Shown: positions 10,701 to 57,281, numbered from the stretch's first letter. The stretch is 64,000 nt of DNA from an uncultured Anaerolineales bacterium (GCA_964393895.1 CAYMWP010000003.1:18351-82350); one strand, 5' to 3'. The notes: generated from the letters alone by a model not told the origin. Numbers and translations: made by a program.

Positions 10701-11769
10701 GATCGCGGCCCTCATTGCCGCCAGCCAAGACCTGGTGATGAGCTTGCCCGCTATCACCCAACACTTGCGCCAACTGGTCCCCCTGGACGTACTGACTCTG
10801 GCTACTTATACCCCCGGCGACCAGGAATACGTCCTCTTTGCTCCTTCCACCGGCGCGGATACGGAGGCCGATGACTTTGCCCTACCGGGTACTTATCTGC
10901 CGGTGGAGGGAACTTGTCCCGGTTGGGTCATCACTCACCGGGAGCCGTGGCTGGATGCGGACATTCGCCGGGAGATGCTTTTCCTGGAGGACGAACAGCT
11001 CGTCTCGGAGGGAATGATTTCGCGCTTATCTTTGCCGTTGCTGGTTGGGGAGCGGGTTGTCGGTGCCATCAACCTGGGCAGTAAACAGCCCGGAGTCTTT
11101 ACTACAGAGCAGCTGCCGCTCCTGCATCAGGTGGCTGACCAGATGGCGCTGGCTTTGGAGCGCACTCGTTTGTTGCAAGAAACCCGCAATGCCCTGGCCG
11201 AGGCCGAGGCTACCCACCGCGCCTACCTGCAACGTGGCTGGCGCGACTATTTGCGCCAGCAGGAGGCGTTGCGGCGAGGGGCCTTCCTCTACGACCGGAC
11301 GCAAGGAGCCGCCGTGCTGGACGGCTTGACCGAACCGGTAGCCGATCTCTGGCTGCCAGAGATGGAGCGCGCTTTGGCCCAGGGTCTCCCCACCGTAGCG
11401 GACATCGGTGGTGGCGAGGAGAAGCGAACGGGGTTGGCTATTCCCATCGTCCTGCGCGGTCAGACCATCGGCGTGCTGGGCATGGACGACCCCGCTGGCG
11501 AGCACGCCTGGTCTGAGGAAGACCGGGCCGTGATCGAGGCGGTCGGCCGGCAGTTGGCCCAGGCGCTGGAGAACGCCCGCCTGCTGGGAGAGACCCAATT
11601 GCGCGCGCAACGAGAGCGCATCATCGGCGACATCACCAGCCGCGTTCGCGCCTCTATGGATTTGGATAACATTTTGCGGACCACCGTCCGAGAGTTGGGT
11701 GCGGCCCTCGGCACCGATCGTGCCTTCATACGGCTGAACCCAGATGCGCAGTTACCTGAGAAACCCTAA
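7768..11769 (+). CDS. PAS x3 - GAF x5 sensor protein with no output domain
   Basis: 1333 aa. Three PAS-like units, each followed by DITERK or DITARK junctions. Five GAF-terminal motifs (IQDTRLR, LESARLF, LRNLSHL, LERTRLL, LENARLL), then the conserved tail. Confidence 0.85.
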   Translation: MQELAAKIRDDLDRLAEEYERLLLEIPGYPGMAQQARSEAARNAVQLVATGLEAGDQDMFVQFVQAVAVERAAQGLEIDSIQQALTALVEVVEPLLDTVEAASFLWKAVIQVNTTLSQMAMERARSTEERFKFLADNITVGVFVHQDGILRYVGREGARILGYDDPAQVVGRSILDFVHPSEQKRIADLARRRVAGEPVPDQYESRFITRDGSPVDVHLYNTLIEYEGRVATQGAFVDITARKEANERARRAQEALRAIVDSMPFGVIVIGRDKIVRRANQAALELIGCESQEQIVGKICHETLCPAEVDRCPILDLGQELDRSERVLVTREGERVSILKSVVPVTLDGEEALLETFVDITERKQAEQSVAEQQAFLQRVIDADPNFIFVKDRESRFVLVNQAVADAYGSTPEELIGKSDADFNPNREQVENFHRDDLRVIDDQQEKYIPEEPITTASGKVRWLQTIKRPLVDEDGVARRLLGVSTDITERKRLEQRIQGSLDRRGRQVQTSTEVAQEIAAATELEELFRRVVTLIKERFDYYHAQIFRYEPALDAVLLVVGYGETGERMLVAGHRLELGRGVVGTAAFTGQSVLASDVAQDPDWVPNPFLPDSQGELAVPIKWRDEVLGILDVQSETAGALTEEDQLLLEGLCGQIAIAIQDTRLRLEMEENLRELERLTRASIREGWEISRRESGAVGYRFDGASVVPTDDSWTRGPQAGGRPTVATPLAVRGEVIGALGVQDDPRHPLSHEDLALVELVAEQVAQALESARLFEQTQVALDQTDVLYRVGQALNVAASYDQIVEALKLHPIVHQASRGGMGLFNRPWSAATAGSPSGDSVPEWVDMVASWHAPDQQALASVGTRYELEAFPVARHFRPDEPFIVEDIADDPRLDDNMRQLYLGLFQARGTIFVPLVAGEQWIGWLNVLMNEPGAFPEDQVRSLMTLAGQAAVALRNLSHLEEIRTRALHEQSLREIAALIAASQDLVMSLPAITQHLRQLVPLDVLTLATYTPGDQEYVLFAPSTGADTEADDFALPGTYLPVEGTCPGWVITHREPWLDADIRREMLFLEDEQLVSEGMISRLSLPLLVGERVVGAINLGSKQPGVFTTEQLPLLHQVADQMALALERTRLLQETRNALAEAEATHRAYLQRGWRDYLRQQEALRRGAFLYDRTQGAAVLDGLTEPVADLWLPEMERALAQGLPTVADIGGGEEKRTGLAIPIVLRGQTIGVLGMDDPAGEHAWSEEDRAVIEAVGRQLAQALENARLLGETQLRAQRERIIGDITSRVRASMDLDNILRTTVRELGAALGTDRAFIRLNPDAQLPEKP

Positions 11770-11794
11770 CGGTTTTCTGAAATCTCGGGTTGGG
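11761..11794. repeat. Degenerate copy of the GGTTTCAGAAAACC-core palindromic element (inverted orientation)
   Basis: AAACCCTAACGGTTTTCTGAAATCTCGGGTTGGG. The left arm and core are conserved and the right arm is degraded. It contains the stop of the upstream GAF gene. Confidence 0.55.
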
Positions 11795-11805
11795 AGTAGC
11801 AAGCG

Positions 11806-14800
11806 ATGGTAAAGACTAGCGATAAGCAAAAAACCGAGGTGCAATTGGTCGAAGAGTTGCAAGAGCCGGAGGAGCAGCGCAAGTGGGCCGTAGAGTCCTT
11901 GCAGGCGAGCGAGGAAAAGTATCGCGCGATTCTCGAGAACATTGAGGAAGCCTATTACGAGGTTGACCTGGCTGGCAATTTCACTTTCTTCAACTCTATG
12001 CTGTGCCAGATGCTAGGGTACACGGCCGATGAATTGATGGGCGCGAACTACCGACGTTATACGGACGATGTGTACGCCGATATGGTGTACCGGATTTTCA
12101 ACAAGGTTTACCGCACCGGGGAGCCTACCAGGATATTGGATTGGGAGGTCAACAGTAAGGACGGGGCCAGGAAACTGGTCGAGTCATCCGTGTCGCTGAT
12201 CCGTGACGCTGCGGGCAAGCCCGTCGGGTTCCGTGGTATCGTTCGCGACGTCACCGGGCGCAAGTGGACGGAGGCCGAAATCGTCAAACTCAATCGCGAG
12301 CTGACCACCCTCAATAGGGTTGGTCAGGCCCTCACCTCCGCTCTGGATCTGGAAGAGACGTTGACCCTCATCACCGAGCAAGTGACCAATTTGCTGGGAG
12401 TAGAGGCGACCTCGGTGATCCTTCACGACGAGGTCCAGGATGACTTGTGTTTCGCTGCCGCGTCCGGCAGTGGTGCGGATTTCATACTCAATGCCCGCTT
12501 TGAATTGGGCCAGGGTATCGCCGGCTGGGTCGTACAGCACGGTGAAGCGGCGGTGGTACCCGACGTATCCCGGGACGTGCGTTGGTTTCGTGATTTTGAT
12601 CATAAGAGCGGCTTGGAAACTCGCTCGATCTTGTGTGTTCCCTTGCGAGCCAAAGGACAGATCATTGGCGCTATTGAGGCGGTAAATAAGTGGGATGGCG
12701 ATTTTGACCAGGATGATTTGCGGCTTTTGACCTCACTGGCGGCGCCGGCGGCCACCGCTATCGAAAACGCCCGCTTGTTCGGGCAGTCACAGGCTCGCGC
12801 CGAGGAATTGGCGGTACTGAACGAGTTGGGGCAGGCCCTCACCGCCCACCTCGACGTCGAAGGAGTGCTGGACGAAGCTTACCGGGGTGTCTCGCGCTTG
12901 ATGGATACCACTAATTTTTACGTCGCCCTTTGCGAGCCGGGTGAGGAGGAGGTTACGTTCGCCATAGATGTGCTCGAGGGAGAGGTGCGGAGGTCGCGCG
13001 AAACCCGCAGGGCCGGTCGTGGCCTGACCGAGCACGTCATTCAAACCCGCGAACCCTTGCTCATCGAAGAGGAGCTGCCCGAACGGTTGGAAGAGTTGGG
13101 AATTGCGTTGATTGGACGGATTGCTCTCTCCTGGCTGGGGGTGCCCCTCGTCGTCGGCGACCAGGTGCTAGGCGTGATGGCCGTGCAGAGTTACACCAGG
13201 CCCCGTCTCTACGGCCAGCGCGAGCGAGATTTGCTGGTCTCTGTTGCCAGCCAGGCAGCTATCGCCATTGAGAATGCCCGATCGTACGAGCAGGAACAGG
13301 CCCGCGCCAAAGAACTGGCCGTGCTTAACGAGCTGAGCCAGTCTCTCACCGCCAGCTTGAGCGTGGAGGATGTGTTGGAGGAGGCCTACCGGCAGGCCGC
13401 TCGCCTGGTGGACACGACCAACTTTTACATCGGCCTCTACGACTCGGATAAGGAAGAAGTGGCTATTCCCTTCATCGTCTCCAAGTCGGAGATTGACCGT
13501 CACATCACCGTCGTTCCTGCGGACCAGGGCTTTACCGGCTATATCATCCGCAATCGTACCGCCGTGTTAGTCGAAGAGAACGTGATCGAATGGTTGGAGG
13601 AGAACGGGATTAGCGTGATAGGGGAGCCGGCTCTTTCCTGGCTGGGAGTACCTCTGATCGTCGGCGACCAAGTGCTAGGAGTTATGGCCGTTCAGAGCTA
13701 TATCACCCCCCGCCTCTACGGCGAGCACGACCGCAAGTTGCTGACGGCCATTGCCGGGCCGACGGCTATCGCCATCCAGAACGCCCGGTTGTACGAGCAG
13801 GCGCAGCGCGAAATCGGAGAGCGCAAGCGGGCGGAGGCGGAGGTGCGACGGCGAGCGGAGCAGGCGGCGCTGACCTACAAGGTGGGCCAGCGCGTCAGCG
13901 GCGAACTGGCGTTGGACGAACTGCTATCCGAAATCGTGATTGCTGTGCACGATGCCTTTGATTACTATGGCGTGATGTTGTTGCTCGAGGGAGAAGCAGG
14001 TTTTCTGACCCTGCAATCCGCGGCTGGCGGCTATATTGACGTTCTTCCAACAGATATCGAGATCGCCGTTGGGGAGGGAATGATAGGGCGCGCGGCGGCC
14101 AGTGGTGTGGCCCAAGTCAGCAACGACGTCAGCCAGAACCCCTATTACGTGCGCAACGCGAATGAGGATACAAAATCAGAGTTGGCCGTGCCCATCGAGA
14201 GCGGCGGCAGGGTCATCGGCGTGCTCGATCTCCAGAGTGACGAGCTGGACGCCTTCGACGAGACCGACGTGATGTTGATGGAAACGCTGGCCGATCAAGT
14301 GGGTGTGGTGATCGAGAACGCCCGCCTGTACGAGGAAATCCAGCGTGAGTTGGCCGAGCGCGAGCGGATGGAAGGGGTGTTGCAAGAAACGCACGAGGAG
14401 CTAGAAAAATATACAACCATCCTGGAGCGCCAGACCGCGCGACTGCGAGTGGGGGCCGAGGTGACCCGCAAAGTTTCCGCTATCCTCGATGTGCGACAAC
14501 TTCTCGAAGAGACGGTGCGCCTCATCTCTAATGAATTTGGCTTTTACCACTCGGCAGTCTTCCTGGTGGGCGAGTCCGGCGAGTATGCCATCCTGCGCGC
14601 CGCTTCGTCCGCAGGGGGGCGCCGCATGGTGGAGCGAGGTTACCGGGTGCCGCTTGGTGGGAAAGATGCCGTGGGCTACGTCGCAGCGACAGGTGAACAC
14701 TGCATTGCCCTCGATGTGGGTGAGGGTGCCGCGATGCTTCCCTTTGATCGGGGGGGAGCTGTTGCTTTCAATAACCCCGACTTATCTGACACCCGTTCGG

Positions 14801-17800
14801 AAATGGCGCTGCCCCTGAGGATGCGTGGTCGCACCATCGGCGTGCTGGACATTCAGTCCACTCAAGAGGCTGCTTTCTCCGAGGAGGACGTGGCGGGGTT
14901 TCAGACGCTGGCCGACCAATTGGCCGTTTCCATAGATAACGCCCGCCTGGTAGAGCGCACAGGAGAACAGTTGCGTGAGCAGGAACGTCTCTACGGTGAG
15001 TACAGCGCCTCCGCCTGGGCCGAGTTGCTGTCGCCCGTTCGACCGCTGGGTTACATCTACGATCGCATTGACGTCTCGCCGATATTGGATTCGCCGGCGC
15101 CGCTTGATTTGGCCCCGCAGCGCGTCGAGGCGGAGACGACGGGCGCAATATTGACCATGCCCCTCAAGGTGCGGGGTCGCACGGTCGGCATCCTGGGCGT
15201 AGAAGAGAGCGATGCCGCCCGTGAGTGGTCGTCTGAAGAGGTCGCCATCGTCGAGGCAGTGAGTGACCAGGTAGCCATGGCGCTGGATAGCGCCCGTTTG
15301 TTTGGAGAGGCCCGCACTCGCGCCGAGGAGTTGGCCGTGTTGAACGAGTTGGCTCAATCTCTCACTGCCCGCCTGACCGTGGACGATGTGCTGGAAGAGA
15401 CTTACCAGGGCGTGTCTCGCTTGCTGGATACCACTAACTTTTACATCGGTCTCTACGACCCACAAAAGAACGAAATATCCTTTCCTTTTAACATCACCGA
15501 ATCGGCGGTGGACGAACAGATCGTCGCCATCTCGGCCGATCAGGGGTACGCTGGCTACATAATGCGGAACCGCACGAGCCTGCTCCTCACGGAGGACACC
15601 ATAGAGCAGGTAGTGGAGCGGACGGCCAAGATGGGTATTGAGCATATCGGGCAGTTGGCCCTTTCTTACCTGGGAGTGCCGTTGGTGGTCGGCGACCGGG
15701 TGCTGGGGGTCATGGCGGTTCAAAACTATACCGTGCCCCACGTCTACAGCGAGCACGACCGGAACTTGTTGACGGCCATCGCCAGCCAGGCGGCCATTGC
15801 TCTTCAGAGCGCCCATCTTTTCGAGGAAGCGCAACGGAGGGCGGCTCAGTTGGCGGCGGCTGCCGAGGTCGCCCGGGACGCCACAGCCATCCTGGAAGTG
15901 GACCAGTTGCTAGACGAGACGGTGCACCTCATCTCGGAACAGTTTGGTTTCTACCACGCCGGCGTGTTTTTGCTGGACGAACGGGGCGAGTACGCCGTTC
16001 TGCAAGCGGCCTCTTCCGAGGGCGGGCGCCGCATGTTGGAGCGGGGGCACAGACTGAAGGTCGGCGAGGTTGGCATCGTCGGCTACGCCGCGGCCACGGG
16101 AGAACCTCGCGTCGCTCTGGACGTGGGACAGGATGCCGTGCACTTTGCCCACGACGATCTCCCCGATACCCGTTCGGAGATGGGATTGCCGCTCAAAGTG
16201 CGGGAGAGAGTGATCGGCGTGCTGGACGTTCAATCTGACCAGACGGCCGCTTTCTCCGCTGACGACGTCGCGGCTTTGCAGACGATGGCCGACCAGTTGG
16301 CTATTGCCATTGCCAACGCTCGCTTATTTCAAGAGACCCGCTCCGATGTGTTGCGCCGCGCCCTCATCAACGAGGTGCTCCAGGCCGCTACCGCTTCGCT
16401 GGATCCAGAGGAGTTGCTTCACCAGGCCGGAGAGGTCATCTCCCGGCGACTAGAGTCGCCCACCGCGCTCTTTGTCTGGGAGGCGGAGGATAAAGTGTTC
16501 CGTACGGTCGCCGTCCACGACTCCCAGGCTGCCGACGTCTCGTTACCTGGGGTATTTCAGCAAGTGACTCGCGGGGTAGCCCCGGTTCTCTTTGAGGCGG
16601 CGGAGAGTCGGCGCACTGCCGTTTTGGAGCTGACCTCCGATGCAAGCGGCCCGTTGGTCACTGCGGCCAGGTGGGCGCGGGCGCAATCCATCATTTACGT
16701 TCCTCTGATATCCCGTGATCAGGTACTGGGTTTGCTTGGTATTGGGAAACTCGAGGAGCAGCCTGTCGTGGACGTCGAGTTCACCGAACTCGTGGCCGCC
16801 AACCTGACCGTGGCCGTGGAAAACGCCCGCTTGTACCAGGAGGCAGTGCAAACCGCCGAACGCCTGGCAGAGGTAGACCGGCTCAAGAGCCAATTCCTGG
16901 CTAACATGTCCCACGAACTGCGCACACCGCTCAACTCTATCATTGGTTTCTCGCGGGTCATTCTCAAAGAGATTGATGGCCCGCTTACCGATATGCAGCG
17001 CACTGACCTGCAATCTGTCTACGATAGCGGGCAGCATTTGTTGGGGTTGATCAACGATATCCTGGAAGTGGCCAAGATAGAATCTGGCAGGATGGATTTG
17101 GTCTCGGAAGTGGTGAATTTACAGGATATTATCAGGGGCGTCATGTCAACCGCCATCGCGCTGGTCAAGGACAAGCCCGCCGTCGAATTGCAGCAGTCTG
17201 TTCCCCAAGACCTGCCCACGATTATGGGCGACACGCGGCGTATCCGCCAGGCGATCCTCAATCTCGTCTCGAACGCTGCCAAATTCACCACGGAAGGCTT
17301 TATTCGTGTGGAAGCCGAGGTTGTAGATACCGAGGTGATCGTCTCTGTGGCCGATAGCGGTGTCGGCATCCCGCCAGACAAGATTGATATGATCTTTGAG
17401 CCTTTCACTCAGGCCGACGCATCCACTACCCGCGAGACTGGGGGCACGGGGCTGGGCCTTTCCATCACCAGCAGCTTTGTCGAGATGCACGGCGGTCGTA
17501 TGTGGGTGGAGAGCGAGGTGGGTAAAGGCTCTACATTCTACATGGCATTGCCCATTCATACCCTCTCTTCTATTGAGGAACAAGTGGAGGAGGAACAGCC
17601 AGAGTTAGAGCCTGGACAAAGAGTCGTTCTCTGCGTAGAGGATGACGAAGGAGTCATCACCCTCTTCCGCCGTTACCTGAGCAAGCGGGGCTACAGGGTA
17701 GTCGGTCTCTCCAACAGTATGATGGCGTTGGAACGAGCGCGAGAGTTGCAGCCGTTCGCCATAACGTTGGACGTGATGATGCCCGGCAAGGATGGCTGGC

Positions 17801-18369
17801 AGGTCGTTCAGGAGTTGAAGGCTGATCCTGCGACCAGCGATATTCCCGTTATAATGTGTACCATCGTAGGCGAGGAGGAGCATGGCCTTAGCCTGGGAGC
17901 GGCCGATTACTTGATCAAGCCGATTCTCGAGCAGGACTTGTTGGCTGCGCTGAATCGTCTGGACCGGCAGGATGAGCGACACTTGGTGTTGGTGGTGGAT
18001 GACCTGCCGGAAGATCGAGATCTGTTGAGCCGGATGATCGAGAGCCAAGAGGGATACGAGGTTATGGGGGCCGGCGGCGGCGAGGAGGCCATCGCCATGA
18101 TCCGGCAAACGTTGCCCGATATTATTATTTTGGATCTGATGATGCCAAACGTGGATGGTTTTGCAGTACTCGAGGCGGTCAAGACAGACGAGAACACTCG
18201 CTCTATTCCCATCATCGTTGTAACCGCCAAAGATCTGACCCCAGAGGAGCGCGAGGTCCTGACCGGTGAGGTAGAGTCCCTGCTCCACAAAGGAATCTTT
18301 GACCGGCAAGAGTTACTGGCAGACGTGGCAGGGGCGCTGGAGCGCCTGAGAGGCAAGGTAGGAGACTGA
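11806..18369 (+). CDS. Giant hybrid sensor histidine kinase: PAS - about 9 GAF - HisKA - HATPase_c - REC - REC
   Basis: 2187 aa. Nine GAF-terminal motifs (IENARLF ... VENARLY). H-box FLANMSHELRTPLNSIIGF, G-box GGTGLGLSITSSFVEMHGGRMWVES, and two receiver domains (LDVMMPGKDG and LDLMMPNVDG). Confidence 0.9.
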   Translation: MVKTSDKQKTEVQLVEELQEPEEQRKWAVESLQASEEKYRAILENIEEAYYEVDLAGNFTFFNSMLCQMLGYTADELMGANYRRYTDDVYADMVYRIFNKVYRTGEPTRILDWEVNSKDGARKLVESSVSLIRDAAGKPVGFRGIVRDVTGRKWTEAEIVKLNRELTTLNRVGQALTSALDLEETLTLITEQVTNLLGVEATSVILHDEVQDDLCFAAASGSGADFILNARFELGQGIAGWVVQHGEAAVVPDVSRDVRWFRDFDHKSGLETRSILCVPLRAKGQIIGAIEAVNKWDGDFDQDDLRLLTSLAAPAATAIENARLFGQSQARAEELAVLNELGQALTAHLDVEGVLDEAYRGVSRLMDTTNFYVALCEPGEEEVTFAIDVLEGEVRRSRETRRAGRGLTEHVIQTREPLLIEEELPERLEELGIALIGRIALSWLGVPLVVGDQVLGVMAVQSYTRPRLYGQRERDLLVSVASQAAIAIENARSYEQEQARAKELAVLNELSQSLTASLSVEDVLEEAYRQAARLVDTTNFYIGLYDSDKEEVAIPFIVSKSEIDRHITVVPADQGFTGYIIRNRTAVLVEENVIEWLEENGISVIGEPALSWLGVPLIVGDQVLGVMAVQSYITPRLYGEHDRKLLTAIAGPTAIAIQNARLYEQAQREIGERKRAEAEVRRRAEQAALTYKVGQRVSGELALDELLSEIVIAVHDAFDYYGVMLLLEGEAGFLTLQSAAGGYIDVLPTDIEIAVGEGMIGRAAASGVAQVSNDVSQNPYYVRNANEDTKSELAVPIESGGRVIGVLDLQSDELDAFDETDVMLMETLADQVGVVIENARLYEEIQRELAERERMEGVLQETHEELEKYTTILERQTARLRVGAEVTRKVSAILDVRQLLEETVRLISNEFGFYHSAVFLVGESGEYAILRAASSAGGRRMVERGYRVPLGGKDAVGYVAATGEHCIALDVGEGAAMLPFDRGGAVAFNNPDLSDTRSEMALPLRMRGRTIGVLDIQSTQEAAFSEEDVAGFQTLADQLAVSIDNARLVERTGEQLREQERLYGEYSASAWAELLSPVRPLGYIYDRIDVSPILDSPAPLDLAPQRVEAETTGAILTMPLKVRGRTVGILGVEESDAAREWSSEEVAIVEAVSDQVAMALDSARLFGEARTRAEELAVLNELAQSLTARLTVDDVLEETYQGVSRLLDTTNFYIGLYDPQKNEISFPFNITESAVDEQIVAISADQGYAGYIMRNRTSLLLTEDTIEQVVERTAKMGIEHIGQLALSYLGVPLVVGDRVLGVMAVQNYTVPHVYSEHDRNLLTAIASQAAIALQSAHLFEEAQRRAAQLAAAAEVARDATAILEVDQLLDETVHLISEQFGFYHAGVFLLDERGEYAVLQAASSEGGRRMLERGHRLKVGEVGIVGYAAATGEPRVALDVGQDAVHFAHDDLPDTRSEMGLPLKVRERVIGVLDVQSDQTAAFSADDVAALQTMADQLAIAIANARLFQETRSDVLRRALINEVLQAATASLDPEELLHQAGEVISRRLESPTALFVWEAEDKVFRTVAVHDSQAADVSLPGVFQQVTRGVAPVLFEAAESRRTAVLELTSDASGPLVTAARWARAQSIIYVPLISRDQVLGLLGIGKLEEQPVVDVEFTELVAANLTVAVENARLYQEAVQTAERLAEVDRLKSQFLANMSHELRTPLNSIIGFSRVILKEIDGPLTDMQRTDLQSVYDSGQHLLGLINDILEVAKIESGRMDLVSEVVNLQDIIRGVMSTAIALVKDKPAVELQQSVPQDLPTIMGDTRRIRQAILNLVSNAAKFTTEGFIRVEAEVVDTEVIVSVADSGVGIPPDKIDMIFEPFTQADASTTRETGGTGLGLSITSSFVEMHGGRMWVESEVGKGSTFYMALPIHTLSSIEEQVEEEQPELEPGQRVVLCVEDDEGVITLFRRYLSKRGYRVVGLSNSMMALERARELQPFAITLDVMMPGKDGWQVVQELKADPATSDIPVIMCTIVGEEEHGLSLGAADYLIKPILEQDLLAALNRLDRQDERHLVLVVDDLPEDRDLLSRMIESQEGYEVMGAGGGEEAIAMIRQTLPDIIILDLMMPNVDGFAVLEAVKTDENTRSIPIIVVTAKDLTPEEREVLTGEVESLLHKGIFDRQELLADVAGALERLRGKVGD

Positions 18370-18374
18370 CAAAG

Positions 18375-24223: not shown

Positions 24224-26372
24224 GCCATATTCCCCGCTGCTCGATCATCCACATCTGAGAATTTAGCTTCGGCCCGTCAGGTTGCGGACGCGCGCGTCTG
24301 TAGCTGCCATCGGGCAACAGTCGCCGGGCTTGCACGTTATCCCTCAGGTGAACACCGAGAATGTGGTCGCGCAATGCGTCCCGCAAATTGGGGTCATCCA
24401 CCGGAAACAACTGCTCTACTCTGCGGTCGAGGTTGCGGGGCATCAGGTCGGCGCTGCCCACAAAGATCTCTTCCTCGCCATCGTTACGGAAGTAGAATAT
24501 GCGGGGATGCTCCAGAAAGCGCCCCACGATAGAGGTGACGGTGATGTTCTCGCTTACTCCTGGCACTCCTGGCCGTAGGCAACAGATGCCCCGTACCTGC
24601 AAATCCACCTTCACCCCTGCCTGTGAGGCCCGGTAGAGCGCCTGGATGCACTCTTTATCCACCAGGGAATTCATCTTGAAGGCCAGGTAGCCCTCCCCGT
24701 GCTGCTCGTGCCGCTCGATCTCGCGCTCGATGCGCGCCAGAATCTCTTGCCGCATCGTCCCTGGGGCCACCAATAGCTTGCGGTATTCTTGCTTGGTGGA
24801 ATAGCCGGTGAGGGCGTTGAACAGATCCGACACGTCCGCGCCGATCTCGGGGTCACATGTAAAAAAGCCAATGTCCGAATAAAGCCGGGCGGTGACGTCG
24901 TTGTAATTACCCGTGCTCATGTGGACGTAGCGCGTGATGCCGTCTCCCTCGCGACGCACCACCATGAGGAGCTTGCAGTGCGTCTTGAGCCCCACCAAGC
25001 CATAGACTATGTGTACCCCCGCCTGTTCCAGCGCCCGCGCCCACACGATGTTGTTCTCCTCGTCGAAACGGGCCTTTAACTCCACCAGCACGGCCACCTG
25101 TTTCCCATTCTCGCGCGCTTTCATCAGCGCTGCCACGATCGGCGAATTCGGGCCGACCCGGTACAACGTTTGCTTGATCGCCAGCACGTCGGGGTCCCGT
25201 GCTGCTTGATGGACGAAATCTATTACCGGGTCAAAGCTGTCGTAGGGGTGGTAGAGTAAAATATCGCGGCGGCGGATCACGGAAAAGATGTTCTCCTCCG
25301 GGGCCAGAGCCGGCGGCACCGACGGTTGGAAGGGCGGATCCTTCAATTCGGGGCGGTTTACGCGGGTCAACTCCATCAGGGCAGCCAGCCCGATGGGGCC
25401 ATCCGCCGTGTATACCTGGTAGGGCGCCAGGCCCAGGTTGGCGACCAGGATGTTGCGCACCTGTTCCGGCATGGTATTATCCACCTCTAGCCGTACCGCC
25501 GAACCAAAGTGACGCATGCGTACACTCTCTTGAATGGCGATCAGCAGGTCGGCGGCCTCGTCCTCTTCGATTTCCGGGTCGGCGTCGCGGGTGACACGGA
25601 AAGGATAGGCGTTCACGATTTCCAGGCCGGGGAAGAGCTTGTCCAGATTAGCGACCACCACTTTCTCCAACCACACAAAGTTGTTGGACGTAGCTTCCGT
25701 CACCAACCCCAGTTTTTGATATTCGTCGGCCGTCTCCTCGCTGGGGATGCGCAGCAGGCGGGGGAACATGTTGGGCACCTTCAAACGGGCGAACCGCTGG
25801 CCGTTCACTGGATCGTTGATCACTACCGCCAGGTTGATGCTGAGGTTGGAGATGTGGGGGAAGGGATGACCTGGGTCGAAGGCCAGCGGTGTGAGGGCGG
25901 GGAATATCTCTTGCTCAAAGTGCTTGCGGAGCAGCTTGCGCTGCTTGCGCTTCAGTTCGTCGTAAGTGAGCACTTTGATCCCGGCCTCGCGGAGTTTCGG
26001 CAACAGGTCATAGTGCCAGCAATCGTATTGCCGCGCCAGTTCCGGGAGCAATTCTCGACGAATAGCGGCCAATTGCTCCGCCGGTGTCATGCTCTCGAGA
26101 GGCGCTGCCAGGGGGCCGGCCTCCAATTGCCTCCGCAAGCCGGAGACGCGGATCATAAAGAACTCGTCCAGGTTGCTGGAAACGATGGACAGGAACTTTA
26201 CCCGTTCCAACAGGGGATGGCGCTCATCCAGCGCCTCCTCCAGAACCCGGTGGTTGAACTGGAGAAAGCTCAGCTCGCGATTTATATAAAGATCAGGGTC
26301 GTTCAGATTTGGGCCCTTTTTGTCTTTCTGGGAGCTGGTTTGCGGCTGGCGGTTCTCTTTTTTTTTCGGCAT
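24210..26372 (-). CDS. ppk1: Polyphosphate kinase 1
   Basis: YINRELSFLQFNHRVLEEA...LERVKFLSIVSSNLDEFFMIRV and the full-length PPK1 architecture. Start chosen at ATG 26372 (MPKKKENRQ), preceded by GAGGA. The ORF track extends to 26420. Confidence 0.95.
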   Translation of the reverse strand: MPKKKENRQPQTSSQKDKKGPNLNDPDLYINRELSFLQFNHRVLEEALDERHPLLERVKFLSIVSSNLDEFFMIRVSGLRRQLEAGPLAAPLESMTPAEQLAAIRRELLPELARQYDCWHYDLLPKLREAGIKVLTYDELKRKQRKLLRKHFEQEIFPALTPLAFDPGHPFPHISNLSINLAVVINDPVNGQRFARLKVPNMFPRLLRIPSEETADEYQKLGLVTEATSNNFVWLEKVVVANLDKLFPGLEIVNAYPFRVTRDADPEIEEDEAADLLIAIQESVRMRHFGSAVRLEVDNTMPEQVRNILVANLGLAPYQVYTADGPIGLAALMELTRVNRPELKDPPFQPSVPPALAPEENIFSVIRRRDILLYHPYDSFDPVIDFVHQAARDPDVLAIKQTLYRVGPNSPIVAALMKARENGKQVAVLVELKARFDEENNIVWARALEQAGVHIVYGLVGLKTHCKLLMVVRREGDGITRYVHMSTGNYNDVTARLYSDIGFFTCDPEIGADVSDLFNALTGYSTKQEYRKLLVAPGTMRQEILARIEREIERHEQHGEGYLAFKMNSLVDKECIQALYRASQAGVKVDLQVRGICCLRPGVPGVSENITVTSIVGRFLEHPRIFYFRNDGEEEIFVGSADLMPRNLDRRVEQLFPVDDPNLRDALRDHILGVHLRDNVQARRLLPDGSYRRARPQPDGPKLNSQMWMIEQRGIWHGEE

Positions 26373-27359: not shown

Positions 27360-28139
27360 CTATCCTTGTGGCTCGGCCTGGAGTTCTTGCTCGGCGTGGG
27401 CTTCTAGTTCTTCCGGCAGCGGGAAGCCGCGATTCACCAGCGCCTCTTCCAGGGCGCGGATGATCGTCTCAAAGACCTTGACCCGCGCCCAGCGGTAGTT
27501 GGTCGCCTCCACGATCGTCCACGGGCCCCACTCGGTTTCGGTACGCTCCAGCATCTCCTCGACGGCGAGCAGGTATTCGTCGTATTTGCGGTGATGCTCC
27601 CAGTCCTCCGGTTGGACGTGCCAGCTCTCGAGCGGATCTTTTTCCAATTTCTTAAAGCGCTTTTTCTGTTCTTTCTTGCTGATGTGCAGCCAGAACTTTA
27701 TAATGACGTAACCATCGTCGGCGATGGTGCGCTCAAAATTCACAATGTCCCGATAGGCCTTGCGCCACTTTTCCTCGGGCGTAAAACCCTCCACCCGCTC
27801 GACCACCACGCGGCCATACCAACTGCGGTCGAAAATGGCCATCTCGCCATAGTTGGGCAGCTTTTGCCAAAAGCGCCACAGCCAGGGCATGTGCGTCTCG
27901 AACGTGCGCGGGGCCTGGATGGGGTAGAGCTTGAAGCCACGCGGCTCGAGTCTCTGGGTAAGCGCCTTGATGGACGTTCCCTTGCCGGCCGCGTCCCAGC
28001 CTTCAAAGACGATGATGCTGGGAATGTTGGCATCCCAGCACGCCTTTTGTAGGTCGTACAGCCGGGAGCGCAGACCGGGCATCACTTCTTTGTACTGCTT
28101 CTTTTTCAGCTTTTTGGTCAAGTCTACTTTTTCTAACAC
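27360..28139 (-). CDS. Polyphosphate kinase 2 family protein (second tandem copy)
   Basis: 259 aa. Motifs IVFEGWDAAGKGTSIKAL and DRSWYGRVVVERVEGF. Paralogous to the adjacent gene. Confidence 0.9.
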   Translation of the reverse strand: MLEKVDLTKKLKKKQYKEVMPGLRSRLYDLQKACWDANIPSIIVFEGWDAAGKGTSIKALTQRLEPRGFKLYPIQAPRTFETHMPWLWRFWQKLPNYGEMAIFDRSWYGRVVVERVEGFTPEEKWRKAYRDIVNFERTIADDGYVIIKFWLHISKKEQKKRFKKLEKDPLESWHVQPEDWEHHRKYDEYLLAVEEMLERTETEWGPWTIVEATNYRWARVKVFETIIRALEEALVNRGFPLPEELEAHAEQELQAEPQG

Positions 28140-28159
28140 TTTTCGCCTCCCCCGATTGA

Positions 28160-28190
28160 GACCCTGGGGGTTTCAGAAAACCCTAGAGTC
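28160..28190. repeat. Palindromic element copy (imperfect)
   Basis: GACCCTGGGGGTTTCAGAAAACCCTAGAGTC lies between PPK2 and adk. The adk stop codon lies inside it. Confidence 0.75.
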
Positions 28191-28851
28191 TGTTTACAAC
28201 AGCACGCAGTTCGGCCTGCACTGTCTCTATGGATTGGTCGCCATTGACCTCGACCAGCACACCCTGGTCTCGATAGTAATCAATCAGCGGGCTGGTCTGT
28301 TCCCAATAGACTTGGAGTCGCTTACGAACTGTCTCTGGTTTGTCGTCGTCGCGCTGGTACAGCTCGCCCCCGTCTCTATCACACACCCCTTCCTCTCGGG
28401 ATGGGTTGAACTGGACGTGGTAGGATTCACCACACGTACGGCAGATGCGGCGTCCACTCACCCGCTCGACCAGCACCTCGTCTGGCACGGCGATGTTGGG
28501 TACCAGCTTGATCCTGTGCCCCTGGGCGGCCAGCGCCTCGTCGAGCGCCTCCGCCTGAGCGATGGTGCGGGGGAAGCCATCCAGCAGCGCGCCGCCGGCG
28601 CAATCCGGCCGGCTCAGGCGATCCATGACCATAGCTATGGTGATGTCGTCGGGCACCAGTTCGCCGCGATCCATGTACTTTTTGGCCTCTAGGCCTAATT
28701 CGGTCTCGCCCTTGAGGTTCTCCCGGAATAGATCGCCGCTGGCGACGTGGGGCAGGTCGAGCGCCTGGCGCAATTGGGCCGCCTGAGTCCCCTTGCCCGA
28801 GGCCGGCGGGCCGAGAAGAACGATGAACGTAGGCTCTTTTGCCATAATCAC
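28183..28851 (-). CDS. adk: Adenylate kinase with a Zn-ribbon lid
   Basis: LLGPPASGKGTQAAQL, GDLFRE, and a lid with RRICRTCGESYH...CDRDGG. Confidence 0.95.
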   Translation of the reverse strand: MIMAKEPTFIVLLGPPASGKGTQAAQLRQALDLPHVASGDLFRENLKGETELGLEAKKYMDRGELVPDDITIAMVMDRLSRPDCAGGALLDGFPRTIAQAEALDEALAAQGHRIKLVPNIAVPDEVLVERVSGRRICRTCGESYHVQFNPSREEGVCDRDGGELYQRDDDKPETVRKRLQVYWEQTSPLIDYYRDQGVLVEVNGDQSIETVQAELRAVVNRL

Positions 28852-36909: not shown

Positions 36910-39233
36910 GATGTTATCAACGTCTCCTTGGCGGCGCGGGCAAAGTGAGCGCGGTAGGCGGCTGTCTCTCTCAGCAGTTTCTCCAAGCGAGCGGCCGCTT
37001 GGTTCAGCCCTGCGCCTGATTTCTGGTCGCCGATCGTCAGATGTGCCTCGTCGTCTGTGCCTTGAGCCTTCAGGATCCCCTTGGCCTCCAGCCAGGCTAA
37101 CCCGGCCCGCACGGTCGCCTCTCGCTGAGCGGTGGCCGCCGCCAGGGTGGAGATGCTGACCCGGCCTCGATTGGCGTTAAGCGCACGTTTGGTCAGTCCG
37201 AGCAACCGTTTCAGGAACGCCTCGAAATCGTCCAGCCCCGGCTCTGTACCAAAGAGATAGATCGTCTCCGGCGAGACCTTGTCCAGCGCGGCCTGCAATT
37301 CTTTGGGGCCGGGGGGCGTGGTCCAGATGGCGAGAGCTTGTGATGGCTCTAGCTCTCGCCTATCGCGACCCGCGACTTGCGCTCTGGCCTCCGCTTCGCT
37401 CCACACTTGCACTTGCTTCTGCTCTCGCAACTGTTCCAGCAACGTATGCGGGTGAGATTCTTGCCTATAGTCCACCACCTGCAACCTGCGACCGGAGATT
37501 GGGGGATGGAGATCGGGGATGGGAGATCTGACGCGGGCATCTACCCACACCACCTGCACCTCTCGCTGACCGCGATAGTCGCTGGCCTGCACGGCGTAGG
37601 CCAGATCGAACTGACCCTGCGGCAACGAGGACTCGTCCCCCCGCCACCAGAGCACTTTTTGCGTCGCGCCAGCCTCGTCCTCCACGACCAGCCGCAGATG
37701 CTCGCCGGTACGGCCTATGGTGGTGTGGCTTTCCAGCCTCAGCCCCTTGCTCGCCAGAGTCAGCGCGGGATTGCCCGGCCCGAAAGGAGCCAGCCGCTCC
37801 AACTGCTCCACCAGGTCGAGTGACAGGTCGGAGAGCGGCAGGTAGCCATCTATGGGGAGTGTGTTAGACCCCAAGGGTCTCAGAAGACCCTTGGGGTCTC
37901 TCGTTAGCGCGCGACTGAATTCGGGGATGCGCTCTGGCTCGATGCTCAACCCGGCCGCCATTGGATGGCCGCCGAAACGGACCAGCATCTCGCGCTGGGC
38001 GGCTATGGCGGCGTGAATGTCACAGCCTGGGATGGAACGAGCTGATCCCCGGCCCAGCTTGCCGGGAGGGGTGGCGATGAGGATCGTGGGGCGGTTGTAC
38101 TGCTCGGCCAAGCGCCCGGCCACGATGCCGATGACGCCAGCCGGCCAATCGGGATGGCTCAGCACCAGCGCCTTGTACTCCAGCAATGAGGGATCGCGCT
38201 CGATCTGCGTCTGTGCTCCTTGAAGGACCTGATCGCATAGCAGCTTGCGCTGGGCGTTCAACCCGTCCATCTCGGCGGCCAGGATACGGGCGCGGGCCAG
38301 GTCGGCGGTGGTCAGAAACTCGACGGCAATGGTGGCGTCGGCCAACCGGGCCAGGGCGTTGAGGCGGGGAGCCAATGCAAAGCCGATGTGCTCCTCAGTG
38401 AGCCGCTCAGGGTTGAGACCGGCGGCCTCTATCATTGCCTGGAGGCCCAACCGCTCGGTGTGACGCAACGCCTCCAGGCCGCGTTGGAGCAGGTGGCGGG
38501 TGTCGCCGGTTTGGGTCGCCACGTCGGCCACGATGCCCAGGGCCACCAGATCGAGGTATTGTGCTGCCTCTTCCGCTCGGCTCGCTCGCTCGTACAGGGC
38601 CTCGGCCAGTTTGTAGGCCACGCCCACTCCCGGAAGTTCGCGCAATGGATGGGTTTCTGGCAGCAGTTTGGGATTGACCACAGCGTGGGCTTCCGGCAGG
38701 GTCGGGGGCAGATCGTGATGGTCGGTGACGATCACGTCCACGCCCTGCGAGCGGGCGTAGGCAATCGCTGCGTGGGCGGTGACGCCGGTATCGCAGGTCA
38801 GCACCAGTTGCACCCCCTCGGCGATGAGCCGTTCCAGTATGGGAGTGTGAAGCCCGTGCCCCCCTTCCTCACGGTTGGGGATGTAGTAGGTGACGGCCGT
38901 GCCCTGCGGCGAGCCTCGTCGAGCCACCAGCTCCCGCAGTGTGGAGACCAGGATAGTCGTCGCCGTCTGGCCGTCCACGTCAAAGTCGCCCCAAACGCAG
39001 ATCGCCTCGCCCTGGCGGATGGCGCGCTCCAATCGCTCTGCGGCTCGAACCAGGTGCGGCAGTTCGGCCGGCGGGGTGGGCTGATAGCGGGCGGGGTCGA
39101 GGAAGGCGCGGGCCGTTTCCACGTCGGTGAACCCGCGTCGGGCCAGTGTCTCTGCCACCAGCGGGTGCCCGCCGACGGCAGAGCGCAGCGCGTCAGGTAC
39201 TCGCACTTTCTGTGGTTCGATCCAATCTTTCAC
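36906..39233 (-). CDS. recJ: Single-stranded-DNA-specific exonuclease RecJ
   Basis: DHH motifs (WGDFDVDGQTATTIL, TCDTG, VIVTDHH) and DHHA1 (FGGHPMAAGLSI), plus a long C-terminal extension. Confidence 0.9.
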   Translation of the reverse strand: MKDWIEPQKVRVPDALRSAVGGHPLVAETLARRGFTDVETARAFLDPARYQPTPPAELPHLVRAAERLERAIRQGEAICVWGDFDVDGQTATTILVSTLRELVARRGSPQGTAVTYYIPNREEGGHGLHTPILERLIAEGVQLVLTCDTGVTAHAAIAYARSQGVDVIVTDHHDLPPTLPEAHAVVNPKLLPETHPLRELPGVGVAYKLAEALYERASRAEEAAQYLDLVALGIVADVATQTGDTRHLLQRGLEALRHTERLGLQAMIEAAGLNPERLTEEHIGFALAPRLNALARLADATIAVEFLTTADLARARILAAEMDGLNAQRKLLCDQVLQGAQTQIERDPSLLEYKALVLSHPDWPAGVIGIVAGRLAEQYNRPTILIATPPGKLGRGSARSIPGCDIHAAIAAQREMLVRFGGHPMAAGLSIEPERIPEFSRALTRDPKGLLRPLGSNTLPIDGYLPLSDLSLDLVEQLERLAPFGPGNPALTLASKGLRLESHTTIGRTGEHLRLVVEDEAGATQKVLWWRGDESSLPQGQFDLAYAVQASDYRGQREVQVVWVDARVRSPIPDLHPPISGRRLQVVDYRQESHPHTLLEQLREQKQVQVWSEAEARAQVAGRDRRELEPSQALAIWTTPPGPKELQAALDKVSPETIYLFGTEPGLDDFEAFLKRLLGLTKRALNANRGRVSISTLAAATAQREATVRAGLAWLEAKGILKAQGTDDEAHLTIGDQKSGAGLNQAAARLEKLLRETAAYRAHFARAAKETLITS
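37866..37897. repeat. Palindromic element copy inside the recJ coding sequence
   Basis: GACCCCAAGGGTC tcagaa GACCCTTGGGGTC has perfect 13-bp arms. It is read in frame as DPKGLLRPLGS. Confidence 0.85.
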
Positions 39234-51802: not shown

Positions 51803-51930
51803 CTTGATCCTGCGTAACTGCTCAGCTTGGTAGCTGTTTAGACCTCCGAGGTCTGACTGAGCAGTTACCACTGTTCTTGGCATTTTTTATCACAAATGGC
51901 GCGAAATAAGAACGCCCTCCACGGTTCACT

Positions 51931-55144: not shown

Positions 55145-55279
55145 ATCGTCGAGTATATTACGTCGGATGCCGATATAAGTCAAGCTCCGCGCGTGCTCTT
55201 GCCAGACACTTGACAGGCCGAACACCTGTTCGTATAATGGGGCAGTGTAGGTATCCTCTCAATAACCTGGGGTTTGAAA

Positions 55280-55320
55280 GGCAAGAAACCAGGTTTTTTT
55301 GAAAAACCTGGTTTCTTGCC
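55280..55320. repeat. Perfect 19-bp inverted repeat with a 3-nt loop in a divergent intergenic region
   Basis: GGCAAGAAACCAGGTTTTT ttg AAAAACCTGGTTTCTTGCC, read directly from the sequence. It shares the AAACCAGGTTTTT/AAAAACCTGGTTT core with the insertion at 40194-40350. Confidence 0.9.
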
Positions 55321-55417
55321 CCGAACTATTGAGATGATACCAGTGTAGGGTGTCGTTGGTTTGATCTCACCTGCTCGATCAGTCGTCGGGCGCAGACCAC
55401 AACCCAGGAGGCCGCGT

Positions 55418-56134
55418 ATGAAAACCAAAAAAGCCAGGGAATTGGGCGCACGAATCGCCGCGCTCGTTCGGGTCGGGCGGATGGACCAAGCCTGCGCTCT
55501 TCTATCCCCAGTGCTGGCCGAACGCACGCCCTTTCGCTTGTTGGGGCTGATCGGTGAGGCGGTCGGCGCGGGGCCGCTGGGGGAGGTGAACCGTTTCCTG
55601 GAGCGCGTGGCGGCCGCAAGGACCGAGGGCGGCTGGGTGGTCATCGGCAAGGCTCTGGGCCAACAGCTAGAGCGTGACGCAGCGGGCGCTTTCGACCGCT
55701 GCCGGGGCTACATCGTCGCCGCCGACGTCTGGTATGGCGCGGACATCCTGGGAGAGCGGGTGCCCGGCCCGGCGTTGGTGGCCGACTTTCGACCGGCCCT
55801 AGAGTTGCTCGCCCCCTGGCGGGAGGATGCCAACCCCTGGGTGCGGCGGACGGTCGGCGTCGCCGTGCACTTTTGGGCCAAGCGTGCACGCGGAGAACGC
55901 GCTGCCGAGGCGGAAACGCTGCTGGCCTTCCTGGAGCCGATGTTCGGCGAGTGGGAGATGGACGCCGTCAAAGGCGTGGGTTGGGGGTTAAAGACGTTGG
56001 GCAAGTATTATCCTGACTTGGTGGCAGGCTGGTTGCCACACCAGGTTGGCCGGCCTCATCGGGCGTTGATGTTGCGCAAGGCGCTGACGTATCTTGCGGA
56101 GGAACAGACCCTAAAGGTTTCAGAAAACCTTTAG
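55418..56134 (+). CDS. HEAT-repeat DNA alkylation repair (AlkC/AlkD-like) protein
   Basis: ATG 55418 is preceded by AGGAG. Helical repeats include ANPWVRRTVGVAVHFW. The family call is moderate. The C-terminus TLKVSENL and the stop are encoded by a palindromic repeat. Confidence 0.6.
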   Translation: MKTKKARELGARIAALVRVGRMDQACALLSPVLAERTPFRLLGLIGEAVGAGPLGEVNRFLERVAAARTEGGWVVIGKALGQQLERDAAGAFDRCRGYIVAADVWYGADILGERVPGPALVADFRPALELLAPWREDANPWVRRTVGVAVHFWAKRARGERAAEAETLLAFLEPMFGEWEMDAVKGVGWGLKTLGKYYPDLVAGWLPHQVGRPHRALMLRKALTYLAEEQTLKVSENL

Positions 56135-56139
56135 GGTCT
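56106..56139. repeat. Palindromic element copy (perfect 15-bp stem, 4-nt loop)
   Basis: AGACCCTAAAGGTTT caga AAACCTTTAGGGTCT spans the stop of the AlkD-like gene. Confidence 0.9.
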
Positions 56140-56146
56140 TGGAATA

Positions 56147-57277
56147 ATGATGGAACTCGAGTTCCAAGAATACCGCGCCCGCAAGATTCTCAACGTCCAC
56201 AAGCACGTGGACGGCCCCTGGTTCTGGGGCAAGTACACGGCGCATCCCTACGTCGGTTGCCGCAGCGGGTGCGAGTTTTGTTACTCGCGGGGCAGCCGTT
56301 ACCTGGGACGGCGCGATCCAGATACCTTTGACATGCTGATCGGGGTCAAGGTCAACGCGGTGGAATTGCTGCGCGGCGAGCTTTTTGGCCGGGAGGACGA
56401 GATCGTCTCCGTAGGCGATTGGCAGCAGCCGGCCGAGAGCCGCTACCGACTCTCGCGCGGTATGTTGGAGGTGGTGCGCGACCTGGGCTTTCCTCTGTTC
56501 ATCGTCGAACGCTCACCGCTCCTCACCCGCGATCTGGACTTGCTCGTGGAAATCAACCGCCAATCCTGGGTGGGCGTGCTCTTTAGCATCAGCAACGTGG
56601 ACCCGGCCCTGAAGCGAGCGTTCGAGCCGCGCAGCCCAGGCGTCAAGCGCCGCCTGCGGGCAATGGAAAAGCTGGCGAGCGCCGGTATCCTGGTCGGCAG
56701 CTCGATGATGCCCGTAATTCCCTTCGTGGGCGACGACGAAAAACACCTGGAGGACCTGATCCGCGCCACCAAAGATCACGGCGGCTCGTGCGTGCTGGCC
56801 GGCGGGCTGACGATGGACGGCGTCCAGGCCCAACGTAGCCTGGTGGCGGCCCGGCGGCTCGACCCGGCGCTGGAACCCCGCTGGCGGGAGTTGTACGGCT
56901 GGGAGGAGGGCGGGAAGCCGAACTATAGCCCGCCGCAGGGGTACAGCGCCTGGCTGGGGCTGCTGGTGCGCGAGTTGTGCGCCCGCCACGGCCTGCTGGA
57001 TCGTATGCCGCGCTACGTGAGGCCAGGGCCGTTGGCGGTCAACAAACGGGTCGCCGAGTGGCTGTTCCTCAAGACCTACGACCTGGAATTGGAGCAGGCG
57101 AAAGAATATCGCATCTGGGCCTATCGCAAGGCAGCCTGGACGGTGGACGAGTGGCCGCAGAGCGTGGCCGAGATATACCAGGCCCAAGGCGAGGCAGGCT
57201 TGCGGGAACTGCCGGGCATCGGCAAGAGTTTGGCGGCGCAGATTATCGAGACCCTAAAGGTTTCAGAAAACCCTTAG
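56147..57277 (+). CDS. SplB-like radical SAM DNA repair photolyase fused to a PolX-type helix-hairpin-helix tail
   Basis: The radical SAM motif is HPYVGCRSGCEFCYSR. The C-terminus YRIWAYRKAAWTVDEW...GLRELPGIGKSLAAQIIE resembles the Pol X N-terminal HhH module. Confidence 0.8.
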   Translation: MMELEFQEYRARKILNVHKHVDGPWFWGKYTAHPYVGCRSGCEFCYSRGSRYLGRRDPDTFDMLIGVKVNAVELLRGELFGREDEIVSVGDWQQPAESRYRLSRGMLEVVRDLGFPLFIVERSPLLTRDLDLLVEINRQSWVGVLFSISNVDPALKRAFEPRSPGVKRRLRAMEKLASAGILVGSSMMPVIPFVGDDEKHLEDLIRATKDHGGSCVLAGGLTMDGVQAQRSLVAARRLDPALEPRWRELYGWEEGGKPNYSPPQGYSAWLGLLVRELCARHGLLDRMPRYVRPGPLAVNKRVAEWLFLKTYDLELEQAKEYRIWAYRKAAWTVDEWPQSVAEIYQAQGEAGLRELPGIGKSLAAQIIETLKVSENP

Positions 57278-57281
57278 GGTC
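57250..57281. repeat. Palindromic element copy (one mismatch)
   Basis: GACCCTAAAGGTTTCAGAAAACCCTTAGGGTC spans the stop of the radical SAM gene. Confidence 0.9.

Follow-up and report, generated by a model that had tools for sequence, protein, structure and literature searches.

The DNA analysed here is a window of 64,000 nucleotides from an uncultured Anaerolineales bacterium (contig C3, positions 18351-82350, of a 4.9-Mb assembly with 294 contigs and 61% G+C, hereafter G000). Genes for two PAS/GAF sensor kinases, Adk, PPK2 and RecJ lie in it, as does a row of genes for an AlkD-like protein, a radical-SAM/HhH protein and Fpg. Between or within these genes stand copies of a 34-nt palindromic hairpin that we call family A. 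Very probably, family A consists of non-autonomous DNA hairpins resembling repetitive extragenic palindromes (REPs), which are spread in related bacteria by an enzyme of the REP-associated tyrosine transposase (RAYT) or TnpA-REP type and have been orphaned in the genome of the window. The congener in which this enzyme was found is called G002, and a more distant congener G001.

Family A in the window and in the genome

The original prediction was that a family of palindromes with a common core is dispersed through the window. This was borne out with the 14-nt core GGTTTCAGAAAACC, which has five matches with up to two mismatches against 0.32 expected, a number that was reached in none of 100 shuffled sequences. 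Read directly from the sequence, each core forms the top of a longer palindrome, and the window contains three intact copies, one imperfect copy and one decayed copy (Table 1). The intact copies fold with −21 to −29.6 kcal/mol and z scores of −4.7 to −6.9. The coordinates and the perfect 15-bp stem of the copy at 56106 had been predicted correctly, and the copy at 11761 had rightly been described as inverted and degraded. For the other three the ends were revised. The copy placed at 57250-57281 does have one mismatch and is one base longer on each side; that placed at 37866-37897 is perfect and of a variant subtype as predicted, but its stem has 15 rather than 13 bp; and that placed at 28160-28190 is imperfect, with one base more at either end. 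The flank composition, the terminator scan and our gene calls agreed with the statements that no U-tract follows the copies and that they lie at gene junctions or within a gene. One copy of a sister family (family B) had been overlooked.

Table 1. Hairpins of families A and B in the window, and examples of hairpins inside RAYT genes of relatives
Feature	Position	Strand	Description
Family A	56106-56139	+	perfect 15-bp stem, CAGA loop; 62.5 bits (covariance model); −22.6 kcal/mol, z −5.9
Family A	57249-57282	+	one A.C mismatch; 56.3 bits (covariance model)
Family A	37866-37899	+	perfect 15-bp stem, compensated subtype GGTCTC..GAAGACC (GGTCTC-AGAA-GACC); 56.9 bits; −29.6 kcal/mol
Family A, imperfect	28159-28191	+	3' arm short by one base; 38.4 bits; z −1.9
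Family A, decayed	11761-11794	-	one core mismatch, arms unpaired; z −0.11 (no folding); not reported by the covariance model
Family B	55282-55318		CAAGAAACCAGGTTTTT-TTG-AAAAACCTGGTTTCTTG; 17 bp, 3-nt loop; −22.2 kcal/mol, z −6.3
In-frame hairpin within RAYT orthologue (loci L138-L167), examples	L139 1859-1897; L158 1734-1773; L141 1686-1725		

The copy at 56106 overlaps the 3' end of the AlkD-like gene (55361-56134), so that the residues TLKVSENL and the TAG stop are encoded within the hairpin, and it ends 7 nt before the start codon of the radical-SAM/HhH gene (56147-57277). The C-terminus of the latter, ETLKVSENP, and its TAG stop come from the copy at 57249, which ends 19 nt before the start of fpg (57302). 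Both sites are occupied in G002. In G001 the first site is empty, stop and next start sharing bases in the sequence ATGA, and at the second site G001 and the genome G003 have a non-hairpin sequence. The copy at 37866 lies in frame within recJ (36906-39233, minus strand) and is translated as TRDPKGLLRPLGSN in the linker past the DHHA1 domain. An alignment to 8y30 and the comparison with relatives showed that it takes the place of the linker with the length unchanged. At this site G002 has a GGTTTC..GAAAACC copy, which differs from that of the window by a compensated change of a T-A to a C-G pair, and G001 has a non-hairpin sequence of equal length. The imperfect copy separates adk (28183-28851, minus strand), whose stop lies within the hairpin, from the PPK2 gene (27360-28139, minus strand), whose start lies at a distance of 19 nt. 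In G002 the copy at this site is imperfect too, and G003 lacks one. All four intact or imperfect copies have counterparts in G002. The decayed copy lies between the two sensor-kinase genes (7768-11769 and 11806-18369).

A genome-wide pattern search of G000 gave 26 exact cores, and a covariance model built on a 45-copy alignment gave about 65 separate hairpin loci, so the absence of further copies, which the original prediction had named as the outcome that would speak against a family, was not observed. The consensus of the 45 aligned copies, nnnAGACCCTAAGGGTTTCAGAAAACCCTTAGGGTCTnnn, has the form AGACC-N5-GGTTT-C(A/G)GA-AAACC-N5-GGTCT with a 15-bp stem and a 4-nt loop. The conserved parts are the foot AGACC/GGTCT, the top GGTTT/AAACC and the C(A/G)GA loop; the five middle pairs vary with both sides changing together. 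These copies had been chosen beforehand to have 8 or more of 10 arm positions paired; among them, 97.6% of the cells are paired and double changes occur at 9 of the 15 pairs. In the 15-nt flanks of 44 aligned copies no base is conserved beyond the 34-nt palindrome and no GTAG or CGTC tag was found. The 3-nt flanks of the copies adjacent to RAYT genes that are described below likewise show no conserved base. Apart from the hairpin itself, no terminal inverted repeats were seen. The 3' flanks are not enriched in T and a scan for the terminator consensus passes over the hairpins. A search of the whole window against Rfam at the gathering score, and of positions 56050-57350 at E <= 1, gave no match.

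The gene context was determined with a simple codon-bias gene caller written for the purpose (3814 genes, 87% coding). Of the 58 good copies, 30 have co-directional neighbouring genes and 13 convergent ones, and 1 stands in a divergent spacer, a type that makes up 19% of the intergenic DNA. Another 11 are well within a gene, and the remaining 3 are at the ends of contigs. At 24 of the 56 adjacent gene ends the stop codon is part of the hairpin, and at a further 21 it precedes the hairpin by 0-25 nt. Stops within hairpins come from the common CTAAG/CTTAG arms, in which TAA or TAG becomes the new stop, and the genes gain tails such as TLKVSEN. The next start codon usually follows 3-24 nt beyond the hairpin, and half of the tandem-gene copies stand in tight operons, a few nucleotides ahead of it. 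With respect to the direction of transcription, the asymmetric loop is oriented equally often either way (15:15). Intragenic copies are read in all three frames via stop-free arm variants, giving DPxGFxKPxGS, RPPRSQKTSEVS or TPGVSENPWGL, and the copy in LigA is a 13-residue insertion relative to the E. coli protein. The copies that persist are found over or after stops, in short operon spacers, between convergent genes, and in frame in surface loops or linkers, as in RecJ and LigA. With 34 nt at about 65 loci, family A has the size (20-40 nt) and the many copies of a REP and is, like REPs, mainly extragenic, downstream of genes and rare in promoter regions. It has no unpaired GT[AG]G or CGTC at the foot of the hairpin, nor does it have the GC-rich stem-loop followed by a U-tract of an intrinsic terminator.

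On a wider scale, the pattern GACC-N5-GGTTTCRGAAAACC-N5-GGTC was found at more than 115 loci when one genome per species was scanned, nearly all in metagenome-assembled genomes (MAGs) with labels such as Ardenticatenaceae, Caldilineaceae, Thermoflexia, Anaerolineales, Litorilinea and Promineifilum. Litorilinea aerophila and Thermoflexus sp. are also among the labels of MAGs with copies. With the covariance model (E <= 1e-6, among the matches listed), the class Anaerolineae yielded a match in 133 of 301 sampled genomes and in 93 of 176 genera, and in a sample of 301 genomes across the phylum only 3 genomes outside the class had one. Between close relatives the number of matches ranges from 0 to more than 140. 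The family is dispersed across genomes of the class Anaerolineae. A literature search found the core sequence unreported, and no description of a RAYT or REP in Anaerolineae.

Some copies deviate from the compact form. The arms may be split by an unrelated loop insert of 25-78 nt, as in G000 contig C22 (about 24320-24432) and at the loci L150, L155 and L163, which include RAYT-adjacent copies. In other genomes, hairpin and flank occur in tandem arrays of three copies with a period of 51 nt (L029, 2102-2235) or four copies with a period of 157 nt (locus L133, G004:C172:4967-5477).

The RAYT-type gene of related genomes and its loss

On contig C115 of G002, an open reading frame of 196 codons has two family-A hairpins upstream and one in the opposite orientation downstream. 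Its protein matches the profile NF047646 (REP_Tyr_transpos) with E 2e-15 and 56.8 bits, which is below the curated cut-off of 80, and PF01797 weakly. A PDB search with the single sequence gave nothing better than E 0.58, and a profile built from 15 orthologues gave a sole match, 4ER8, the TnpA-REP of E. coli (E 1.5e-6). The same structure was the top Foldseek match (E 1.6e-7, TM score 0.69) of an AlphaFold (AF2) model with a mean predicted confidence (pLDDT) of 90.7, followed by the TnpA proteins of IS200, IS608 and ISDra2. The model has a helical C-terminal extension of about 45 residues. The HUH histidines H58 and H60 and the tyrosine Y126 of the motif YIHxNP are invariant among the orthologues. 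The protein therefore has the HUH motif, the single catalytic tyrosine in Y---NP and the fold of a RAYT or TnpA-REP (HUH-Y1, class 2 of Quentin et al. 2018).

To what extent the hairpin accompanies this gene was seen in 30 orthologous loci from many families. In 28 of them hairpins stand both upstream of the RAYT gene, 10-90 nt from its start, and immediately past its stop. At 16 of the 30 loci a further hairpin lies in frame inside the gene, always in the loop that joins the HUH strand to the helix after it. The internal and flanking hairpins usually agree in their N5 variant, directly or as reverse complements. Most hairpins of a locus agree in this way, and lineages differ in variant and loop. 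Over all these loci the common frame is AGACC-N5-GGTYT-loop-ARACC-N5-GGTCT. A RAYT homologue was detected in 84 of the 301 class genomes and a close one in 32, among the matches listed. The hairpin is present in 29 of the 32 genomes with a close orthologue and in 104 of the 269 without (odds ratio 15, p 1e-8, kinship between the genomes being ignored). A single-copy RAYT gene flanked by its own REP, the arrangement of a REPtron, is thus found in G002 and at the 28 loci. We conclude that in relatives the hairpin is physically and statistically tied to a gene for a RAYT-type HUH-Y1 enzyme in a REPtron-like layout.

In the genome of the window this arrangement is missing for family A. The flanks of the G002 locus map side by side on contig C54 of G000 (4590-5891 and 5876-7380), and the junction GATGTGAG-AGACCCTAAGGGTTT-TTGAATTATAAGG (the right side in longer form TTGAATTATAAGGAGG) is half a hairpin from which the gene has gone. 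The RAYT gene of family A has been deleted here and half a hairpin is left. The original prediction had named a cognate REP-associated tyrosine transposase as the partner to look for; it was found in the congener and at the orthologous loci, but in the window's own genome the gene is lost.

No other RAYT gene flanked by family A was found in G000, where PF01797 has three matches. The one on C274 is an ordinary IS200-type TnpA (115 bits to PF01797), and its 2.2-kb contig has no family-A hairpin. The RAYT-like gene on C41 appears to stand between REPs of a different, GTAG-type family. The third, on C5, is the single homologue found by tblastn with the G002 protein (41% identity, C5:50661-51110), and is flanked on both sides by the sister family B. 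Enzyme and hairpin appear to be specifically paired, since the sister RAYT stands between copies of the sister family and not of family A. The approximately 65 copies of family A in G000 are probably orphans, unless the C5 RAYT also mobilises them. Perhaps this enzyme serves family A, or perhaps the 6% that the assembly lacks contains a second RAYT copy.

Turnover and origin of family A

The sites of family A were compared between G000 and G002. Of 25 syntenic G002 sites, about 14 have a hairpin in G000 and about 10 lack it there; of about 17 informative G000 sites, about 9 have a hairpin in G002 and about 8 lack it. About 40% of the informative sites are private to one species, in both directions, the events being unpolarised for want of a close outgroup. 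At about one third of the shared sites the loop is flipped (C106:8826, C73:6086, C105:12786, C4:62706, C111:4801, ligA, C65:10687 and C107:12805), and at two shared sites the copies of the two species are exact reverse complements of each other. Different N5 variants occupy some shared sites (L190, L202). Decay is visible as half hairpins, as the foot-only remnant AGAC-AA-GGTCT and as a 78-nt insert in the loop. At the orthologous site L224, G002 has an unrelated GC-rich hairpin in place of family A. Short tandem repeats occur in one species where the other has a hairpin, namely GAAACGT repeats in G000 (C10, about 32240-32260) and CAATGTCCAATTAC repeats in G002 at the counterpart of a G000 C190 region (locus L221).

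By analogy with the TnpA-REP of E. coli and with IS200/IS605 elements, the RAYT would bind the folded single-stranded DNA hairpin, cut it and rejoin it, and such action would spread, replace and perhaps invert copies. The palindrome would be kept up and the loop flipped by processes at the DNA level, such as exchange between the arms, template switching or replacement by another copy; selection for a single orientation of the RNA would not account for it. Loop flipping may need no enzyme, as the hairpin inversions of chloroplast DNA suggest. When transcribed, a stem of −21 to −30 kcal/mol is predicted to be a probable barrier to 3' exonucleases or a modulator of the coupling between cistrons, and a secondary effect of this kind on the mRNA is likely.

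Several observations weigh against RAYT-driven spread. Since the GT[AG]G guide is missing, either recognition and cleavage must proceed differently than in canonical REPs or the hairpins may not be cut by the enzyme at all. Covariation was counted in copies selected for pairing, and phylogeny is ignored in the statistics on the association between hairpin and RAYT gene. No RAYT homologue was detected in 69 of the 133 hairpin-positive genomes, many of which are incomplete MAGs. No clean target site or target-site duplication was readable at the approximate empty sites C22:7209, C100:4097 and C6:49537 or at the window site 56106 compared with G001, the intergenic DNA being too diverged with 78-84% identity. 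G000 still has private copies even though its RAYT is lost, and the expectation that a RAYT-less genome is free of private insertions was not supported by the counts given above. These copies fit a recent loss of the RAYT, cross-mobilisation or deletions in the other lineage. Since both species have private copies, the comparison does not demonstrate dependence on the RAYT. A rather unlikely, though possible, reading of the same data is that this RAYT clade acts as an editor of hairpins. The enzyme would recognise the AGACC foot and GGTYT top of a fully paired 15-bp hairpin that lacks GTAG, and would overwrite or invert resident hairpins, among them the in-frame copy in a surface loop of its own catalytic domain. 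Such editing would explain why most copies at a RAYT locus have one N5 variant or its reverse complement, why orthologous sites have flipped or different variants, and why the frame is kept throughout the class. On this reading the copy inside the RAYT gene could be an autoregulatory site as well.

The hairpins might instead be RNA elements selected by the host, which would keep 3' exonucleases off the upstream mRNA, define where it is processed or adjust how the next gene is translated. The very stable stems, the compensated stem changes, the tight placement after stops and 3-24 nt ahead of the next start, and the many copies kept at the same site in two species all agree with this, and for the REPs of E. 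coli a stabilising effect on upstream mRNA is known (PMC6006769). However, the loop and the bases next to it are the most conserved part of the hairpin and yet their orientation to transcription is random, so that recognition at the RNA level is unlikely to be the cause of the conservation. Copy numbers between 0 and more than 140 among close relatives, the 40% of sites private between congeners and the in-frame copies inside genes also speak against selected RNA elements, and the linkage to the RAYT gene in 28 of 30 loci would be left unexplained. We regard this origin as unlikely. A role in RNA is compatible with the REP/RAYT model and fits as a secondary effect, and both can hold. Even less can be said for intrinsic terminators or attenuators in a lineage that terminates without U-tracts, which we consider extremely improbable: GC-containing perfect stems do stand at gene 3' ends and between convergent genes, and at L224 an unrelated GC-rich hairpin takes the place of family A in G002, but neither a T-run nor a hit of the consensus terminator scan goes with the hairpins, half of the tandem cases lie in tight operons before the next start and 11 copies in coding sequence. 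Besides, termination would need conserved structure only, whereas here one sequence is conserved over a class and is linked to a RAYT gene.

It is also conceivable that the hairpins are miniature inverted repeats or binding palindromes served by a DDE transposase or a dimer binding double-stranded DNA, or that they propagate themselves by template switching, with the RAYT gene merely a landing place. Since hairpins also occur within the RAYT gene itself and within many other genes, their position next to it could in part reflect an insertion preference; the 69 hairpin-positive genomes without a detectable RAYT, and the chloroplast hairpin loops that flip without a dedicated enzyme (PMC12371153), point in the same direction. 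An accidental landing place would hardly be hit, however, at the same three positions (before the start, in one fixed protein loop and after the stop) in orthologues of many families, where each locus usually shows a single N5 variant, nor would the sister RAYT be expected to be flanked by the sister family. With neither terminal inverted repeats past the hairpin nor conserved flanks, we think this explanation very improbable.

The proposed spread of family A by a RAYT-type enzyme can be compared with known systems. REP/RAYT systems (REPtrons) have been described in E. coli, Stenotrophomonas, Marinomonas and Pseudomonas (PMC3333891, PMC8266576, PMC6006769; PDB 4ER8). As in these, the short palindromes of family A number tens to hundreds and mostly stand downstream of genes, some lying within them, with copy numbers that vary widely between relatives, and a single small HUH-Y1 gene is flanked by its own repeat and can be deleted, leaving orphan repeats. 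The original prediction had classed the elements as REP- or RPE-type repeats rather than terminators. The likeness to REPs holds in that they are dispersed, lie at gene 3' ends or in frame, lack a U-tract and occur in either orientation. The likeness to RPEs, the palindromic elements of Rickettsia (PMC3733652), holds only for the tolerated in-frame insertion, family A with its 34 nt being much shorter. Canonical REPs are defined by an unpaired 5' GT[AG]G guide (PMC3733652, PMC6006769). Family A has none, and its conserved AGACC foot and GGTYT near the loop lie within the stem. This stem of 15 bp is longer than those tabulated for GTAG REPs, 5-13 bp (PMC3733652), and one REP group described in PMC8266576 also has perfect palindromes. 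Family-A copies are single units, unlike the doublets known as REPINs and bacterial interspersed mosaic elements (BIMEs). Their sequence frame is kept over a whole class rather than a genus, and the RAYT has an in-frame repeat inside its own coding sequence at 16 of 30 loci.

With the GTAG and CGTC repeats of Di Nocera et al. 2013 (PMC3733652), family A shares the downstream position, G-T pairs, compensated sub-families and intragenic units notably in genes of replication and repair, here recJ and ligA. It bears neither tag and, in contrast to the CGTC repeats, has an associated tyrosine-transposase gene. The IS200/IS605 elements IS608 and ISDra2 have the same HUH-Y1 fold, being the second-ranked fold matches, and sub-terminal DNA hairpins as the recognised substrate, but the RAYT-like gene stands outside any multi-copy insertion sequence and the hairpins spread without it. 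Minute inversions in chloroplast hairpins (Kelchner & Wendel 1996, as reviewed in PMC12371153) resemble family A in that loops flip between close relatives while stem and flanks stay. Those inversions are a general property of hairpins in organelle DNA, without a repeat family or an enzyme, whereas family A flips in many members of one dispersed family and may have its stem variants swapped as well.

Taken together, family A and its RAYT are a previously undescribed variant of a REPtron-like system, and the general kind of element is already known. The value of the finding rests on the variant features and not on the category. REP/RAYT systems have been well studied almost only in Proteobacteria, where the place of the cut is believed to be set by an unpaired GTAG guide. 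A RAYT-type enzyme paired with a tag-less, perfectly paired hairpin, a pairing kept throughout one class of Chloroflexota, would mean a different mode of recognition. The two congeners, one with the enzyme and one in which it was deleted, form a natural pair with and without it. The repeats visibly alter proteins by new stop codons, shared C-terminal tails and in-frame copies in RecJ, LigA and the RAYT. Knowing family A should guard annotators of Anaerolineae MAGs against miscalled gene ends, terminators and small RNAs.

Sister family B and further repeats

Family B has 44 copies in the genome, of the form AGAAACCAGGTTTTT-loop-AAAAACCTGGTTTCT (GAAACC-N-GGTTTTT-loop-AAAAACC-N-GGTTTC). It has the AGA..TCT foot and the TTTC(A/G)GAAAA top in common with family A and occupies the same kinds of position. 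Its copies at C5:50579-50610 and about C5:51206-51258 bracket C5:50655-51116, the only RAYT gene of this clade in G000, so that a REPtron arrangement does exist in this genome for family B. The family-B RAYT is without the loop that holds the internal hairpin in the family-A RAYTs.

In the window the family-B copy lies in a divergent intergenic region upstream of the AlkD-like gene. A perfect 12/12 match to a sigma-70-like promoter (TTGACA-17-TATAAT) is present at 55210-55238 on the plus strand, upstream of the row of AlkD-like, radical-SAM and fpg genes, and the family-B hairpin stands between this match and the first start codon of the row.

The RAYT-like gene on contig C41 (248-1027, locus L118) matches NF047646 with 84.5 bits, which is above the cut-off, and its surroundings translate as repeated GRNAIPTY-like peptides. 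These surroundings suggest a separate, classical GTAG-type REP family with members such as GTAAGGCGGAATGCCATTCCGCCTTAC, of which at least four copies were found in the hairpin census of G000. A further recurrent hairpin form in this census, GTTAGCGCGG-(A/G)ACGC..GCGT-CCGCGCTAAC, was found at C7:4096-4134, C7:6775-6811, C133:88-124 and C151:4233-4265.

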